From Acidobacteriota bacterium (lineage in GTDB: Bacteria; Acidobacteriota; Thermoanaerobaculia; Multivoradales; UBA5704), in contig JBEQUE010000231.1 in assembly GCA_040349255.1 (NCBI GenBank), positions 34,641 to 98,640 of the forward strand: DNA of 64,000 nucleotides. Reading direction: 5' to 3'. A program made the translations under genes and the position numbers. Positions within the stretch are counted from its first letter, which is position 1, and each line of letters starts with the position of its first letter. This document shows, one piece after another, positions 9,775 through 14,452 of the stretch. The notes below the pieces were generated by a model. It was given only the letters and a program-made list of their open reading frames with translations, made no database searches and had not been told where the DNA came from.

Positions 9775-10707
9775 TCAGTGCGGTTCGTCCAGGACCGCGG
9801 CGACTGAAGTGGCGACGATGGCCTTCTCCAGCCAGCGTTCCAGCCGCTCCGGATCCTTCTGGGCCAGGATGCGCTCGCGGACGGCGTCGGGTACTTCGAT
9901 GCCGCGAACCCGAAGGACGGTCAGCACATTGAGCGCCGTCGCCTCGGTCCGTCCTTTGCTGAGCCCTTCGGTAAGCCCCTTGGTGAGCCCTTCGGTAAGC
10001 CCCTCGGTGAGCCCCTCGGCATGTCCTTGCGCGACGTACTTTTTCGCGAAATCGCTCTGGTATTCGTAGCCCTTCATCATCGTCTCCAACGCGCGGCGGG
10101 CCGCGTCGTTCAGGGAATTGTACACGAGGTCGTAGTAGAACCTGGCCCGGTCATCATCGAGTCCCTGGATTGCGGGCAGCACCGCGGCGGCGATCGTCGC
10201 TCCTTGCTCGGACTCGCCGTGCGCCAGCGCGGAGAGAACGCCAAGCTCGGGCCGGCGGGACGCTTCCTCGGTGTCTGTCACGAGCGGAATTGCGGTGCGG
10301 CGAAGAACAGGTGGGCGCAGCACGAAGCCGGGGATTCCGGTCTCGATCGGTTCCGCGCACCACCCGGCGACGATCGGGTTGGGCGCGACAACGAGGAGAG
10401 CCGCCGGGCAGTTGTGGATGGCGCGGGAAACCGTCACGTAAGCAGGCCAGCTCAGACGCTTTCTGGGGTCCGTCGCCAGTTGGACCTCGACGATGATCAC
10501 CCGAACGGAGACTTCCCCATCAAGGAGCACGACGACGGCGTCAGCGCGATATTCGGCGGGCTGGATTTCGGTCAGGTCGGACGAGGCAAGGCGGGCTTCA
10601 GTGTAGGCCGGGAGCGAGACGCCGAGCACCTCGACCAGGATCTCGGCGGCGAGCGAGGGGCGGTTCTTGAAGAGATCCACAAGAATCTCGTGGGCCATGG
10701 AGGGCAT
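9775..10707 (-). CDS. Rpn-like PD-(D/E)XK nuclease/transposase-like protein
   Basis: EYRADAV...IVEVQL nuclease-like core; YQSDFAKKY followed by (EGLT)n tail; start MPSMAHE supported by a -10-like hexamer 7 nt upstream. Confidence 0.65.
   Translation of the reverse strand: MPSMAHEILVDLFKNRPSLAAEILVEVLGVSLPAYTEARLASSDLTEIQPAEYRADAVVVLLDGEVSVRVIIVEVQLATDPRKRLSWPAYVTVSRAIHNCPAALLVVAPNPIVAGWCAEPIETGIPGFVLRPPVLRRTAIPLVTDTEEASRRPELGVLSALAHGESEQGATIAAAVLPAIQGLDDDRARFYYDLVYNSLNDAARRALETMMKGYEYQSDFAKKYVAQGHAEGLTEGLTEGLTKGLTEGLSKGRTEATALNVLTVLRVRGIEVPDAVRERILAQKDPERLERWLEKAIVATSVAAVLDEPH
9960..10019 (-). repeat. Five 12-bp coding tandem repeats (EGLT/KGLT)
   Basis: Units tgagcccttcgg, taagccccttgg, tgagcccttcgg, taagcccctcgg, tgagcccctcgg. 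Confidence 0.9.
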
Positions 10708-10798
10708 GGAGGCCATTGTCGCATGAAAACATGCCCGATAGCACGTCGAAGAGATCCGGATGACGGCGAGGAGAGACACCCCGAAGCTCGCGCCAGGT

Positions 10799-11043
10799 AA
10801 AAAGCGGCGTGTTTCAACGCGGTAGAGCCAAAGGCACCGGGCTCTGCCTCCCTCCAGGGGTTGGCGTCTGTCATTCGAGGAGGGAGGCCGAGGGGAATCT
10901 TCAGGAGGGCATCCACGCGCCCTCCCATCCGGCCTTCCCCCGGAGCCGCCCGTGCCTGAACGGCAGACACGGATTCCCGGAAGGCCGGAACCCCCAGATT
11001 GGCGGATGGCGGCGGCCTTGGACTCGGCGGCCGGCCATCCTCA
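10799..11043 (-). ncRNA. Candidate structured non-coding RNA (~245 nt), family unknown
   Basis: Six consecutive stems, including two 10-bp perfect stems (ccggccttcc/ggaaggccgg and gcctccctcc/ggagggaggc); 5' boxA-like element; 3' small hairpin plus U5. Confidence 0.45.
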
Positions 11044-11060
11044 TTGAGTTGTCAAGGAAC
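11044..11060 (-). promoter_or_regulatory. boxA-like antitermination element 2
   Basis: GTTCCTTGACAACTCAA closely resembles rRNA-leader boxA sequences. No -10 lies at 17 bp, so it is not a promoter. Confidence 0.5.
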
Positions 11061-11069
11061 CACGCCATC

Positions 11070-11104
11070 AGAACAACAGGGGCCCGCCGGGATGGCGGAC
11101 CCCT
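11070..11104 (-). terminator. Intrinsic terminator after the 119-aa gene
   Basis: AGGGGTCCGCC-ATCCC-GGCGGGCCCCT (11 bp, one G-U) followed by GTTGTTCT. Confidence 0.65.
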
Positions 11105-11115
11105 GGGTGAGACAC

Positions 11116-11475
11116 CTACTCCGGCTGCGGCAGCGGGCTGTCGTCCGTGCTGCGCGTCCGGGTGTGCAGCGGCTGGAGGCCGAACTCGGCGACCTTCTGG
11201 CTGCGGTTGCCGTAGTGCTCGCGCACCGAGGTGCGCAGCACCGTGGCGAGCTTGCGGCCCTGGGCCAGCAGGAAGTAGACCCGCTCGGTGGCCTGCTGCC
11301 GGCTCGCGGTCAGCGCGGCCTGCTCGGCCGTGAAGGCCCGGATCTGGTCCAGGAGGGTCTGGAGCCTCTGGCGGGGGAGGTCCAGTTGCGCGAGCTCGCC
11401 GCTGTTCTCCTCCAGGGCGGTCAACAGCTCCTCCCATCCGTTGACGGTCGCGCCGTACGACTTCGAGTTGGGCAT
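11116..11475 (-). CDS. Hypothetical alpha-helical protein, 119 aa
   Basis: Strong RBS AAAGGAGAAGGAC-ATG; dedicated promoter and terminator; helical sequence ending EFGLQP. Confidence 0.8.
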   Translation of the reverse strand: MPNSKSYGATVNGWEELLTALEENSGELAQLDLPRQRLQTLLDQIRAFTAEQAALTASRQQATERVYFLLAQGRKLATVLRTSVREHYGNRSQKVAEFGLQPLHTRTRSTDDSPLPQPE

Positions 11476-11509
11476 GTCCTTCTCCTTTCCTGGGGTTCCC
11501 GACCCCGAT

Positions 11510-11523
11510 TGACGGCGCCGTCA
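11510..11523. promoter_or_regulatory. Perfect 14-bp palindrome in the 5' leader
   Basis: TGACGGCGCCGTCA, 35 nt upstream of the ATG at 11475. Confidence 0.45.
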
Positions 11524-11578
11524 TCGGCGCCGGTTCCTATCAGCCGGAGGCTCGCGGGTTCCACCCATTCCCAGGAGA

Positions 11579-11591
11579 AGTTTTCAAAGAT
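11579..11591 (-). promoter_or_regulatory. boxA-like element 1
   Basis: ATCTTTGAAAACT, about 22 nt downstream of the predicted TSS. Confidence 0.5.
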
Positions 11592-11608
11592 GACCGGCTT
11601 CGCCCACT

Positions 11609-11649
11609 GACGGATCGGTAGTCTAGATCCGTCTCATTGTGGATGTCAA
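11609..11649 (-). promoter_or_regulatory. Sigma70-type promoter with overlapping inverted repeat
   Basis: TTGACA (11644-11649)-N18-TAGACT (11620-11625); the IR GACGGATC-N9-GATCCGTC (11609-11633) straddles the -10. Confidence 0.7.
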
Positions 11650-11733: not shown

Positions 11734-12056
11734 CAGCCTCTCGGCAAGTTCGACGGGCCTCTCCGCGGGCTTCCCGGGACTCCCGTTGGCCTTGACGAGG
11801 CTCTCGTCGAGCTTCCCGAGCCTCTCATCCAGCTCGACGAGCCTCCCGGCGGCCTCCCGGGCCTTCCATCCAGCTCGACGAGCCTCTCCGCGACCTCCGC
11901 GCGGCTCTTGTCGAGGTCGTCGAGCCTCTCATCCAGGCGGACGAGCCTCTCATCGAGGTGGACGAGCCTCTCGTCCAGATGGATGAGCCCCTCGTCGACC
12001 TCCCGAGCCTCCCGTCCAGCTTGCCGAGCCTCTCGTCGAGCTCGTCCGGAGCCTCG
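11734..12056. repeat. Degenerate 21-bp-period tandem array (~15 units)
   Basis: The gagcctctc-like core recurs at 11734, 11755, 11776, 11797, 11818, 11839, 11859, 11880, 11901, 11922, 11943, 11964, 11985, 12005 and 12026. Confidence 0.9.
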
Positions 12057-12067
12057 TCAGGCTCGCT

Positions 12068-12108
12068 CCCTCTCTCCCGGCCCGGGAGAGAGGGCTGGGG
12101 AGAGAGGG
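12068..12108. repeat. BoxC/REP-like purine-pyrimidine palindromic element
   Basis: ccctctctcccgg-c-ccgggagagaggg hairpin plus ctggggagagaggg tail. Confidence 0.6.
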
Positions 12109-12142
12109 AACGGGATCAAATCCCTGTGCTATCCTCCCGGCC

Positions 12143-12418
12143 ATGGCTGTCGATCCGGAGCTGCTCGAGATCCTTGTCTGTCCCAAGTCCAGGGGTGAGC
12201 TGGAGCTGATCGACCTCCCGCAGGAGGTCCGCTCGGCGCTGGCCGAGAAATACCGGGAGCACTTCCGCGACGAGGAGCCGGTCGTGGAGCAGGGGCTCTA
12301 CTGCGCGGCCTCCGGCCTCGTCTATCCGGTCGTCGCGGACATCCCGATCATGCTGATCGAGGACGCCCTGCCGGCCTCCGCCGTGGGACGACCGGGCGAG
12401 CCCGTCCCGGCCCCCTAG
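12143..12418 (+). CDS. Trm112-family protein with internal insertion
   Basis: LLEILVCPKSRGEL...GLYCAASGLVYPVVADIPIMLIEDA. Confidence 0.8.
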   Translation: MAVDPELLEILVCPKSRGELELIDLPQEVRSALAEKYREHFRDEEPVVEQGLYCAASGLVYPVVADIPIMLIEDALPASAVGRPGEPVPAP

Positions 12419-13671
12419 TGTCCACCGCCCCGCAGGCTCCCCAGGATCCTTCCGTCCCCCCGCTCTCCCGGATCCGGCGGGCGGGCTCCTGGCTGTTCTC
12501 CGGCCATCTCCTCGCCGTCTTCAGCATCGCGGCCTCGAACATCCTCCTCGGCCTGACCGTCCTCACCCTCCCCTGGAGCCTGCGCGGCCGGCGGGAGGAC
12601 TGGAGCCGCGCGGCGCCGCTCCTGCTGTGGACCGGCGTCTACGCTCTCTGGCTGGTGGGCTCGATCTGCGCCTCGTTCGACCCGCCGACCAGCCTCGGCG
12701 GGCTGCGCGAGCTGTTCACGCTCTCCGCCCTCCTCATGGCGCCCGGCCTGGTGCGCGGCGAGGCCGAGGTCCGCCGCCTGATCGACGGTCTCGTCGCGGC
12801 CGCCGCCCTGCTCGCCTGCGCCGGCCTCTCCCAGTACCTGGTCGGCTATGGCGACATCGACCGGCGTATCCGCGGACCCTTCTCTCACTACATGACGTTC
12901 TCCGGCTTCCTCCTGATCTGCGACATGCTGCTCCTGTCCCACCTCCTGATTTCCGGCCGCGGTGGGGGCCGCTGGGGCTGGCGCTGGGTGGCCCTGGTGC
13001 CGATCAACGTTGCCCTCCTCGCCAGCTACACCCGCAGCGCCTGGGTGGGTCTGGTGGTGGCGGTGACCGTGCTCGTCCTCATCCGCGCGCCCAGGCTCCT
13101 GCTCGCCTACTTCCCGCTCGGCGTGCTCATCGTCCTCCTCGCCCCGGTGCCGATCGTGCGGCGGATGCTCTCGATCACAGACCTGCAGGACCCGTCGAAC
13201 TACGACCGCATCTGCATGCTGGAGGCCGGGCTGACCATGGTGAAGGAACGCCCGCTTTTCGGCCTCGGCCCGGAGATGGTCGAGCGCCGGTACCCGATCT
13301 ACCGCTCGCCCAGCGCGCCGCGCTTCGAGGTCCCCCACCTCCACAACAGCTTCCTGCAGCTCGCGGCCGAGCGCGGCGTCCCGACCCTGCTCGCCTATCT
13401 CGCGATGAACGCCGCCTGCCTGCGCGCCATGCTCCGGCGCTACCGCAGGGAGGGCGGACGGCGGGGGCCGCGGGCCGATCTCTATCTCGGCGGGCTGCTC
13501 GCGCTCCTCGCCTTCAACGTGGCCGGCCTGTTCGAGAACAACTGGGGCGATACGGAGGTCCAGCGCCCGGCCCTGTTCCTGTTCGTGCTGCCGTTCTGTC
13601 TGGCGGCCGGGTCCGAGGAAGACGCCGGCGAGCCGGATGATATGCTCCCGGACCGGCCGGAGGCCGTTTGA
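12418..13671 (+). CDS. O-antigen ligase (Wzy_C) family membrane protein
   Basis: Multi-TM; SYTRSAW, RPLFGLGP and HLHNSFLQLAAERG motifs. Confidence 0.8.
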   Translation: MSTAPQAPQDPSVPPLSRIRRAGSWLFSGHLLAVFSIAASNILLGLTVLTLPWSLRGRREDWSRAAPLLLWTGVYALWLVGSICASFDPPTSLGGLRELFTLSALLMAPGLVRGEAEVRRLIDGLVAAAALLACAGLSQYLVGYGDIDRRIRGPFSHYMTFSGFLLICDMLLLSHLLISGRGGGRWGWRWVALVPINVALLASYTRSAWVGLVVAVTVLVLIRAPRLLLAYFPLGVLIVLLAPVPIVRRMLSITDLQDPSNYDRICMLEAGLTMVKERPLFGLGPEMVERRYPIYRSPSAPRFEVPHLHNSFLQLAAERGVPTLLAYLAMNAACLRAMLRRYRREGGRRGPRADLYLGGLLALLAFNVAGLFENNWGDTEVQRPALFLFVLPFCLAAGSEEDAGEPDDMLPDRPEAV

Positions 13672-13720
13672 CGGCACGTGCCTTGCACGCGCCGGGGGGA
13701 CAGAACAGGGACTTGCCGCC

Positions 13721-14452
13721 TTGCGCCTCGATCATCTCCTGGTTCAGAGAGGGCTGTTTCCGACGCGGGAGCAGGCCCGGCGCGCCGTCATGGCCGGCAT
13801 CGTCGAGCTCGACGGCCACCGGGCGGACAAGCCCGGCACGCCCGTCGGAGAGGACGCCCGCGTCTCCGTCCTCGGCCCGAAGGAGCCCTTCGTCTCCCGC
13901 GCCGGCCGCAAGCTGGCCGACGCCCTCGACCATTTCCAGGTCGATCCGGCCGGCCTCGTCTGCCTCGACGTGGGCGCCTCGACCGGCGGCTTCACCGACT
14001 GCCTGCTCCAGCGCGGCGCCGTCCGGGTCTACGCCCTCGACGTCGGCTACGGCCAGCTCGACCACAAGCTGCGCTACGACGACCGGGTGGTGGTCATGGA
14101 ACGGGTCAACGCCCGCAATCTCGGCCCCGGGGACCTGCCGGAGCCGGCGGGCCTGATCACGATCGACGTCTCCTTCATCTCGCTTTCCAAGGTGATGCCG
14201 GCGCTCGTCCCGCACCTGGCTGCGGGCGGGCGGGTGCTCGCGCTGATCAAGCCGCAGTTCGAGGCCGGCAAGGGCGCGGTCGGCAAGGGCGGCATCCTGC
14301 GCGACGAGGAGCTGCGCCTCAAGGTGATCGACGAGTGCTCCGCGGAGCTCGCCGGCCCGGGGCTGGAGCTGCTCGGCGTCCACGACTCGGCCGTGACCGG
14401 CATGGGCGGCAACCGCGAGGCGTTCGCCCTGCTCCGGAAGGAGTCTGTGTGA
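13721..14452 (+). CDS. tlyA: TlyA-family rRNA 2'-O-methyltransferase
   Basis: S4 domain (RLDHLLV); FVSRAGRKL, LDVGASTGGFTDCLLQRGA and LIKPQFE motifs; start approximate (TTG 13721). Confidence 0.92.
   Translation: MRLDHLLVQRGLFPTREQARRAVMAGIVELDGHRADKPGTPVGEDARVSVLGPKEPFVSRAGRKLADALDHFQVDPAGLVCLDVGASTGGFTDCLLQRGAVRVYALDVGYGQLDHKLRYDDRVVVMERVNARNLGPGDLPEPAGLITIDVSFISLSKVMPALVPHLAAGGRVLALIKPQFEAGKGAVGKGGILRDEELRLKVIDECSAELAGPGLELLGVHDSAVTGMGGNREAFALLRKESV

Follow-up and report, generated by a model that had tools for sequence, protein, structure and literature searches.

We examined a 64-kb stretch of DNA from an Acidobacteriota bacterium (hereafter the window; assembly GCA_040349255.1, contig JBEQUE010000231.1, positions 34,641 to 98,640 of the forward strand) that carries, in the region 11070-11649, a compact gene cassette whose elements listed below all lie on the minus strand. 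The cassette is a monocistronic unit made up of a near-consensus sigma70 promoter, a 5' untranslated region (5'UTR, or leader) of ~138 nucleotides (nt), an open reading frame (ORF) for a three-helix protein of 119 amino acids (aa) and an intrinsic terminator; read 5' to 3' on the minus strand, its landmarks are a 21-nt tandem array, the promoter, a first boxA element (boxA#1), two leader hairpins (HP1 and HP2), the ribosome-binding site (RBS), the ORF, the terminator and a second boxA (boxA#2). The promoter, the inverted repeat over the -10, the boxA, the leader palindrome and hairpin, the strong RBS, the terminator and the second boxA that an initial annotation had read from the letters alone were all found to be present. 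The features, in window coordinates, are as follows.

11750..12044, minus strand: non-coding tandem array just upstream of the promoter, period 21 nt, ~12-14 units, core GACGAG-AGG-CTCGTC
11620..11649, minus strand: sigma70-type promoter TTGACA-N18-TAGACT, 10/12 matches
11609-11616 and 11626-11633, strandless: perfect 8-bp inverted repeat GACGGATC-N9-GATCCGTC spanning the -10
11579..11592, minus strand: boxA#1, CAUCUUUGAAAACU (core TCTTTGAAAACT at 11579-11590), in the 5'UTR ~23 nt past the predicted transcription start
11573..11580, minus strand: anti-Shine-Dalgarno sequence (anti-SD) CUUCUCCU, immediately 3' of boxA#1 and complementary to AGGAGAAG of the RBS
11513-11532, minus strand: HP1, CGGCGCCG-AUGA-CGGCGCCG
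11510-11523: perfect 14-bp palindrome TGACGGCGCCGTCA, overlapping HP1
11492-11506, minus strand: HP2, GGGGUCGGGAACCCC, directly 5' of the RBS
11479-11487, minus strand: RBS, AAGGAGAAG
11116-11475, minus strand: ORF of the 119-aa protein, with acidic N-terminal helices, a basic C-terminal helix, the motif HYGNRSQKVAEFGLQP and a Pro-rich tail
11067..11105 (stem 11077-11105), minus strand: intrinsic terminator T1, a 12-bp stem with 10 G-C pairs and the U-poor tail UUGUUCU
11047..11061, minus strand: boxA#2, GGUUCCUUGACAACU (core TCCTTGACAACT at 11047-11058), 16 nt past the terminator stem
10835..11040, minus strand: structured non-coding RNA (ncRNA), consisting of the P1 hairpin (11004-11040, loop GAGUCCAAG), a multi-stem domain and the 3' box GAGCCCGG

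The protein, taken at first for an orphan, turned out to have many relatives. An initial homology search returned 79 homologues at 42-88% identity, nearly all of them 116-122 aa long, and a profile search of 1.84 billion cluster representatives matched 1,140 clusters with a cut-off of E <= 1e-3, and 555 when this was tightened to E <= 1e-10; among the 150 matches listed, nearly all measured 100-170 aa. Longer members were considered as informative fusions and rejected, as they proved to be miscalled starts or chimeras. All named members come from Acidobacteriota, either Thermoanaerobaculia or 'Holophagales' metagenome-assembled genomes (MAGs), and there are at least 8 paralogues per MAG. The best-conserved stretch is C-terminal and reads HYGxRSEKLxEFGxQPFRGR(K/R), followed by the Pro-rich tail; many members carry an RGR/RGRP stretch after this motif, which has been lost in the window protein. 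The predicted helical character of the protein was borne out by an all-helical AlphaFold model, a bundle of three long helices and one short helix (predicted local distance difference test, pLDDT, 81), acidic over the N-terminal third and with its basic residues in the C-terminal half. Searches of Pfam, NCBIfam and PHROGs gave nothing significant, nor did the sequences of solved structures when queried with a single sequence and with two profiles; a PADLOC search gave only an insignificant match (E 0.0038), a Foldseek comparison of the model with PDB and BFVD gave no significant match, and no DNA-binding fold was recognisable in family-library and structure searches. As judged from these searches, the small-protein family is large, lineage-specific and multi-copy in Thermoanaerobaculia-type Acidobacteria and has no annotation in the libraries searched.

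Family-wide counts given below are drawn from 61 family genes or loci (numbered L001 and upwards), those for leaders and promoters from 55 loci, and the nine closest cassettes are that of the window together with L003-L005 and L007-L011. The promoter TTGACA-N18-TAGACT is the sole sigma70-like site across 10-13 kb of the window (shuffle mean 0.1). An equivalent promoter stands at equal distance in L003-L011, and one with at least 9/12 matches lies 90-300 nt upstream of the ATG in 27 of the 55 loci. All-against-all clustering of ORFs from the 61 loci revealed no conserved neighbouring gene. The small-protein gene is autonomous and probably highly expressed. The perfect inverted repeat over the -10 had been labelled an operator, and this did not hold up among the relatives: a different repeat with 7/8 matches occupies the same site in L004, and a comparison of promoter regions showed no inverted repeat over the -10 in L003 and L008-L011. 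The label is an interpretation and not an observation.

Within the leader, HP1, and not the 14-bp palindrome that overlaps it, is the feature actually conserved. It was recovered by a strict pattern in at least 29 of 55 family loci (~40 by inspection), and in the alignment 95.7% of cells are paired, three pairs show compensatory changes and G-U wobbles fall on the mRNA strand; the covariation exceeds that of all 500 shuffles and extends across paralogues whose proteins share only ~40% identity. HP2 is conserved in position, as a hairpin of other sequence abuts the RBS in most paralogues. Neither HP1 nor HP2 resembled the local array unit by inspection, and a mimic of that unit serving autoregulation was accordingly rejected. 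In the closest cassettes boxA#1 is directly followed by CUUCUCC(U), the complement of the RBS segment GGAGAAG; CTTCTCC is invariant across the eight leaders that carry the anti-SD, and it is paired with the RBS in the minimum-energy folds of the window leader and of 7/8 related ones. Pairing between cognate 5'UTR and 3' boxA modules was also considered and rejected, cognate pairs being no better than non-cognate ones.

The two boxA copies lie on the sense strand of predicted untranslated RNA, boxA#1 104-115 nt before the ATG and boxA#2 past the stop codon and the terminator. A degenerate word, TCYTTGAMAACT, has only two matches in the 64 kb, both of them in the cassette, and none in 100 shuffles; an Rfam scan found no ribosomal RNA (rRNA) genes in the window, and the related genome loci examined had none either. 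boxA#1 is kept in 8/9 of the closest cassettes, and a perfect GTTCTTTGAAA stands at the boxA#2 position in L004 and L010. At the family level the consensus is GCTCTTTGACAA / GCTCTTTGACAACTGAA, the conserved stretch reaches ~22 nt (GCTCTTTGACAACTGAAGCACC), and a G+C-rich hairpin, often with a U-run, follows 10-15 nt past the boxA; position 5 is variable (T, A, C or G) among RNA-linked copies. A boxA was found on the same strand no more than 700 nt downstream of 34 of the 61 family genes (no more than 250 nt for 28), and for 23 genes another copy lies upstream in divergent orientation. The initial annotation had suggested examining whether the flanking elements are conserved, and they are in part: the downstream boxA and the arrays described below recur through the family, whereas the leader boxA and the structured RNA are restricted to the closest subfamily. 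The boxA follows the stop codon by 20-28 nt in L015, L018 and L028 (27-28 nt in L015 and L018), and in L028 it precedes the sole terminator found by scan, which places it in the 3'UTR there.

An exact-match metagenome scan for the 15-mer CTCTTTGACAACTGA returned 120 loci. Among these random occurrences, 22 had rRNA landmarks at canonical distance: the site preceded the 16S 5' end by 46-252 nt, or sat in the spacer 69-355 nt ahead of the 23S 5' end. In one more a family ORF lay 179 nt upstream. The published gamma-proteobacterial boxA consensus is GYTCTTTAANA (PMC5725501); the family motif differs from it only at position 8 (A to G), as do the matched rRNA operons. Because the family motif is identical to rRNA-operon sites and one position off the published consensus, we regard it as a bona fide boxA at the sequence level. 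An rRNA-type boxA is specifically linked to the small-protein family. Several GC-rich contigs from the metagenome scan that lack rRNA landmarks (L070, L073, L136, L139 and L157) have, after the boxA, a G+C-rich hairpin resembling those that follow family genes; a family ORF is present in L073, and the hairpin of L157 is identical in sequence to that of L073. The genome scan may therefore understate how widely the boxA-plus-hairpin module occurs. Separately, a second, divergent boxA, TGTTCTTTGACAATCGATG, with a GGGGACGGG...CCCGTCCCC hairpin was seen ~300 nt upstream of the ORF in L007-L011 (minus strand; L008:3640-3720, L009:600-690, L010:3650-3730 and L011:3620-3700), and no counterpart was seen in the window.

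All paralogues inspected have an intrinsic terminator behind the ORF, and in the nine closest cassettes the order of ORF, terminator, boxA#2 and structured RNA is constant. An alignment of the nine loci gave a conserved downstream RNA of about 225-250 nt, for which RNAalifold returned a consensus of 42 pairs; 98.9% of cells are paired, compared with 40-60% in slid controls, and six pairs changed on both sides. Many of the pairs are U-G, which would be C-A on the opposite strand, and these wobbles place the RNA on the strand of the ORF. In the nine loci, the interval from the last 250 nt of the ORF to boxA#2 contained no sigma70-like promoter, even at 8/12 matches, so that read-through is the only visible route to the downstream RNA; TTGACAACT, tried as its -35, was rejected since no -10 lies at the right distance and the nine loci hold no 8/12 promoter. 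Of the proposed unit of protein, ncRNA and nuclease, the first two parts are supported for the closest subfamily, in the form of a fixed order and a promoter-less RNA in nine cassettes, and the nuclease is not: the 334-aa ORF downstream of the structured RNA (9775-10779, minus strand), which contains an (E/K)GLT repeat, has no nuclease family match in Pfam, NCBIfam or PADLOC and was not found beside homologous cassettes when neighbouring ORFs were compared. At the gathering threshold Rfam matched nothing in the window, nor any part of the cassettes in 18 related loci, and at E <= 10 it gave nothing on the cassette beyond a terminator-only match to tfoR (27.5 vs 70 bits). A unit of boxA plus P1 (loop GUGUCCAAGG) was also seen at the head of other, shorter structured RNAs near distant paralogues, in varied orientations (L036:3187-3250, L037:3551-3630, L057:3660-3722 and L053:6765-6830); the one in L036 has its own promoter, TTGACA-N17-TACAGT, ~60 nt upstream.

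Tandem arrays are the other recurrent companion of the gene, with a 21/42-nt array directly upstream or downstream of it in ~35 family loci. For the window array, Tandem Repeats Finder (TRF) reported a period of 21 with 12.1 copies as well as a period of 42, and self-BLAST concurred. Homologous arrays occur in L003-L011: in the window and L003-L004 the main array precedes the promoter, a short downstream remnant is present in L003-L005, and in L007-L011 the array stands between the terminator and boxA#2. Other arrays were located at L043:4582-4912 (42 nt x 8, 86% identity), L052:4506-4906, L016:3150-3650 and L021:3235-3740. The unit sequence is specific to the paralogue group, the 21/42 period is strictly kept, and the units hold short palindromes (GACGAG-AGG-CTCGTC in the window, TTCAAGCTTGAA in L021 and CATTCCC..GGGAATG in L016). 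Arrays change through the gain or loss of whole 21-nt units; in the orthologous arrays of L007, L008 and L009, substitutions are even over codon positions (13/14/14 and 14/12/17) and indels are either whole-unit (21 nt) or frameshifting (1, 5, 8 and 23 nt). The array as coding sequence was rejected on account of this lack of codon-position bias and the frameshifting indels, though the L009 array is open in one heptad frame (DERLxRF). The strand that places the boxA after the array is G-rich in 13/14 boxA-adjacent arrays, and the same strand folds better in 13/14, by a mean of 19 kcal/mol, a difference confounded by G content. In L016 and L024 a divergent consensus promoter (TTGACA-16-TATAGT or TATAAT) leads into the array, then the boxA, then a terminator.

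The surroundings of the cassette vary. In the window it lies upstream of Trm112, and in L001, a 1.24-Mb contig of a Holophagales-labelled MAG, between TlyA and Wzy. The window (12143-14452) and L001 (1-9986) share a syntenic block of genes for Trm112, a Wzy_C/O-antigen-ligase-like protein, TlyA and NAD kinase, and the cassette sits at a different point of it in each. This difference in position indicates that the cassette occupies variable regions, and its different points within a syntenic block suggest that it relocates. Toxin-antitoxin (TA) genes surround the cassettes in L001 and L002 (MazE, PIN, HicB and PemK). Between the array and the Trm112 start the window also has, at 12060-12116, a long and nearly perfect hairpin or inverted repeat, CTCCCTCTCTCCCGGCCCGGGAGAGAGGGAG, which gave sub-threshold microRNA-like Rfam matches only. 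Off the cassette, Rfam also marked a group II intron D1-D4 domain and two transfer RNAs near L012 (6579-6795 and 3193-3435) and a DUF3800-VI RNA near L043 (2402-2457).

The cassette resembles several known systems in part. In rRNA operons boxA assembles a Nus complex (NusB-S10, NusA, NusG and SuhB), and the family motif shares with it the consensus, the sense strand and a place ahead of a structured ncRNA; it differs in lying outside an rRNA operon, tied to a small-protein gene and mostly 3' of the ORF. A boxA in the 5'UTR, as at suhB, can repress translation and trigger Rho termination, and many such sites are reported upstream of non-rRNA genes (Baniulyte et al. 2017, PMC5725501). boxA#1 is likewise in the 5'UTR of a protein-coding gene, yet suhB-type elements lie within 50 nt of the ATG, as opposed to 104-115 nt here, and boxA#1 abuts an anti-SD, belongs to one subfamily only and precedes a gene whose product is no known Nus factor. 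In the lambda pL-nutL-N-tL1 region, a strong promoter is followed by boxA in a long structured leader, a basic protein of ~110 aa and a terminator, an order of elements that the cassette repeats, and boxA#2 with P1 forms a nut-like unit of boxA, spacer and hairpin. Lambda N is a small, intrinsically disordered protein whose N-terminal arginine-rich motif binds the boxB hairpin, whereas the cassette protein is predicted to be a folded three-helix bundle without such a motif. The boxA-P1 unit is downstream of T1; boxA#1 is upstream of T1, and no conserved hairpin was recognised beside it. The family is chromosomal and multi-copy, and phage genes were not seen around the loci inspected, though no search of a viral or phage collection was completed.

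Stringer and colleagues reportedly described in 2020 boxA elements upstream of arrays of clustered regularly interspaced short palindromic repeats (CRISPR). The use of boxA for long arrays has been discussed (PMC7862264). The cassettes have in common with these a boxA accompanying an untranslated transcript that is long and repetitive and, lacking such a signal, would be open to Rho. Here, where array and boxA are contiguous, the boxA is at the 3' end of the array instead of in a leader; spacers between the repeats are absent, as are cas genes. Type III TA loci have been delimited by a promoter, repeats of 31-62 nt in 1.9-5.6 copies, a terminator and a ToxN, CptN or TenpN toxin (PMC3401426). 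The likeness of ToxIN, CptIN and TenpIN to the cassettes lies in a small-protein gene and a repeat RNA split by an intrinsic terminator, in locus-specific repeats and in a TA-rich setting. The order found here, by contrast, is promoter, gene, terminator and (in some loci) array, or an array upstream of the promoter, which departs from the published arrangement, and the protein has no significant PADLOC, Pfam or Foldseek match to the ToxN, CptN and TenpN endoribonuclease families and has an unrelated fold. The CsrB/RsmZ sponges display repeated GGA motifs in hairpin loops to a protein of the CsrA fold. The window array would similarly give an ncRNA of many short hairpins showing a purine motif (AGG triloops), but it has no GGA, the unit motifs vary by paralogue, the protein is helical and the RNA is encoded beside the protein gene.

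We tentatively read the cassette as the gene of a small protein that is controlled by its leader and probably binds RNA, with boxA carrying the transcription unit on into an ncRNA; to this reading we give close to, though short of, an even chance. The leader would act as a translational switch in which the anti-SD beside boxA#1 sequesters the RBS, and NusB-S10 bound at boxA#1 could modulate this switch, as at suhB. HP1 is the likeliest feedback site, for the protein itself or for a shared factor, since among the RNA elements it is the one that accompanies the conserved protein motif throughout the family. Some polymerases would pass the U-poor terminator T1, and boxA#2 would then load Nus factors so that the structured RNA (plus the array in relatives) could be made without being cut short by Rho. 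The protein may bind RNA through its basic C-terminal half, giving a protein-plus-ncRNA module. Nus-dependent read-through past T1, proposed in the initial annotation, is no more than plausible.

A number of observations weigh against this reading. In most paralogues the boxA precedes only a short hairpin or terminator, and several loci have the array before the boxA; with boxA after the ORF or array and ahead of a short hairpin, a simple antitermination or anti-Rho role is not explanatory. Nus complexes of the rrn type in E. coli suppress Rho-dependent termination far better than intrinsic termination, and the terminators of L006-L010, with 7 U, look efficient. Both window copies depart from the consensus, boxA#1 (CATCTTTGAAAA) at positions 1-2 and boxA#2 (GTTCCTTGACAA) at position 5. 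The fold energy of the leader is unexceptional (z = -1.4), and since anti-SD and SD are both nearly invariant, their pairing gains no support from covariation; in L007 a 45-nt deletion removes boxA#1 and the anti-SD while all else is kept, including the downstream RNA. The covariation in that RNA comes from essentially two clades and therefore reflects few events. The idea of RNA binding draws solely on the distribution of charge and the conservation of Tyr, Arg, Lys and Phe residues, and arrays beside boxA-less paralogues have no strand bias.

A wider version, in which the cassette, the boxA-hairpin modules, the arrays and the structured RNA constitute a new ribonucleoprotein (RNP) system of diversified RNA-binding proteins with cognate ncRNAs, borrowing the rRNA antitermination signal for long untranslated transcripts or for titration of NusB-S10, is possible but on balance doubtful. 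Less likely again, though still worth weighing, is a DNA module, that is, a small DNA-binding protein for which the 21-bp phased arrays are cooperative sites (centromere-, iteron- or decoy-operator-like), with boxA and hairpins doing no more than terminate or insulate flanking transcripts. The strict 21/42-bp period (21 bp being two helical turns) kept while the unit sequence varies by paralogue group, the short palindrome in each unit, the placement of arrays on either side of the gene, as DNA sites would be, the RGR/RGRP stretch of many family members and the absence of strand bias noted above all speak for such sites. The clustering of ORFs, however, yielded no partner nucleoside triphosphatase (NTPase) or other conserved gene, fold and family searches recognised no DNA-binding fold, the window protein lacks the RGR stretch, and the most widely conserved elements, notably HP1, are RNA hairpins with G-U wobbles. 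In boxA loci, moreover, both the array-boxA-hairpin order and the G-rich strand are polar, and this polarity, together with the consensus promoter that reads into the array in L016 and L024, points to a transcript. An unlikely, somewhat weaker contender than the DNA module makes the boxA itself the active part: instead of acting on the polymerase that transcribes them, boxA-hairpin modules, as abundant mRNA 3'UTRs or 3'-derived small RNAs, would titrate NusB-S10, or the family protein would bind them in competition with Nus factors, and rRNA antitermination would be tuned as a result. The specific link of the motif to the family, the extension of the conserved stretch to ~22 nt and the strong promoters on at least 8 copies per genome are in keeping with it, as is the layout of L028 (and, by spacing, of L015 and L018), where a boxA with a terminator 10-15 nt further on has the 5'-seed-plus-terminator architecture of a small RNA. 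Against this, ~27 of the 61 family genes have no nearby boxA, which means that the protein does not need one, position 5 varies in RNA-linked copies, and we know of no precedent for a trans-acting boxA decoy.

Two further explanations are more improbable still. A type III-like toxin-antitoxin or defence pair, in which protein and repeat RNA neutralise each other and the terminator sets their ratio, would account for the adjacency of protein gene, terminator and tandem array, for paralogue-specific repeats and for cassettes that lie in TA-rich variable regions (L001, L002) and whose placement with respect to Trm112, Wzy and TlyA differs between the window and L001. The order, however, is reversed or variable, and repeats of 21/42 nt in 8-25 copies fall outside the published limits; the all-helical 119-aa chain has no significant PADLOC, Pfam or Foldseek match to toxins, and with a consensus promoter and a strong RBS driving the protein while a terminator precedes the RNA, the toxin would be in excess. 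We think such a pair quite improbable. Least probable of all, to the point that we give it very little weight, is an ordinary conserved hypothetical gene beside which the boxA words are chance TTGACA sequences and the array a decayed heptad-repeat coding sequence. The boxA motif does contain TTGACA, and the L009 array is open in one frame with DERLxRF heptads, but no -10 lies at the right distance from that TTGACA, the array shows even substitutions over codon positions and frameshifting indels, and the motif recurs in 34/61 family loci, occurs twice in the window where none is expected and is identical to rRNA-operon boxA.

The kinds of component found here, namely promoter, leader, boxA and terminator, are known, and what is undescribed in the libraries searched is the protein family, the HP1 motif, the downstream RNA and the link of boxA and arrays to a multi-copy family. 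boxA is regarded as a signal of rRNA operons and lambdoid phages, to which a few 5'UTRs and CRISPR leaders have lately been added, and here it is systematically tied to a large multi-copy small-protein family in an abundant, poorly studied soil phylum. If these links are not functional, there would still be a clean, conserved cis-regulatory leader worth adding to RNA family databases. If the RNP system is real, the Thermoanaerobaculia would possess a multi-copy accessory module linked to the control of ribosome synthesis; and if the links are functional, they would define a new family of proteins, two or more new RNA motifs and a novel role for Nus factors in 3'UTRs and ncRNAs, and would offer a testable entry into gene regulation in Acidobacteria.

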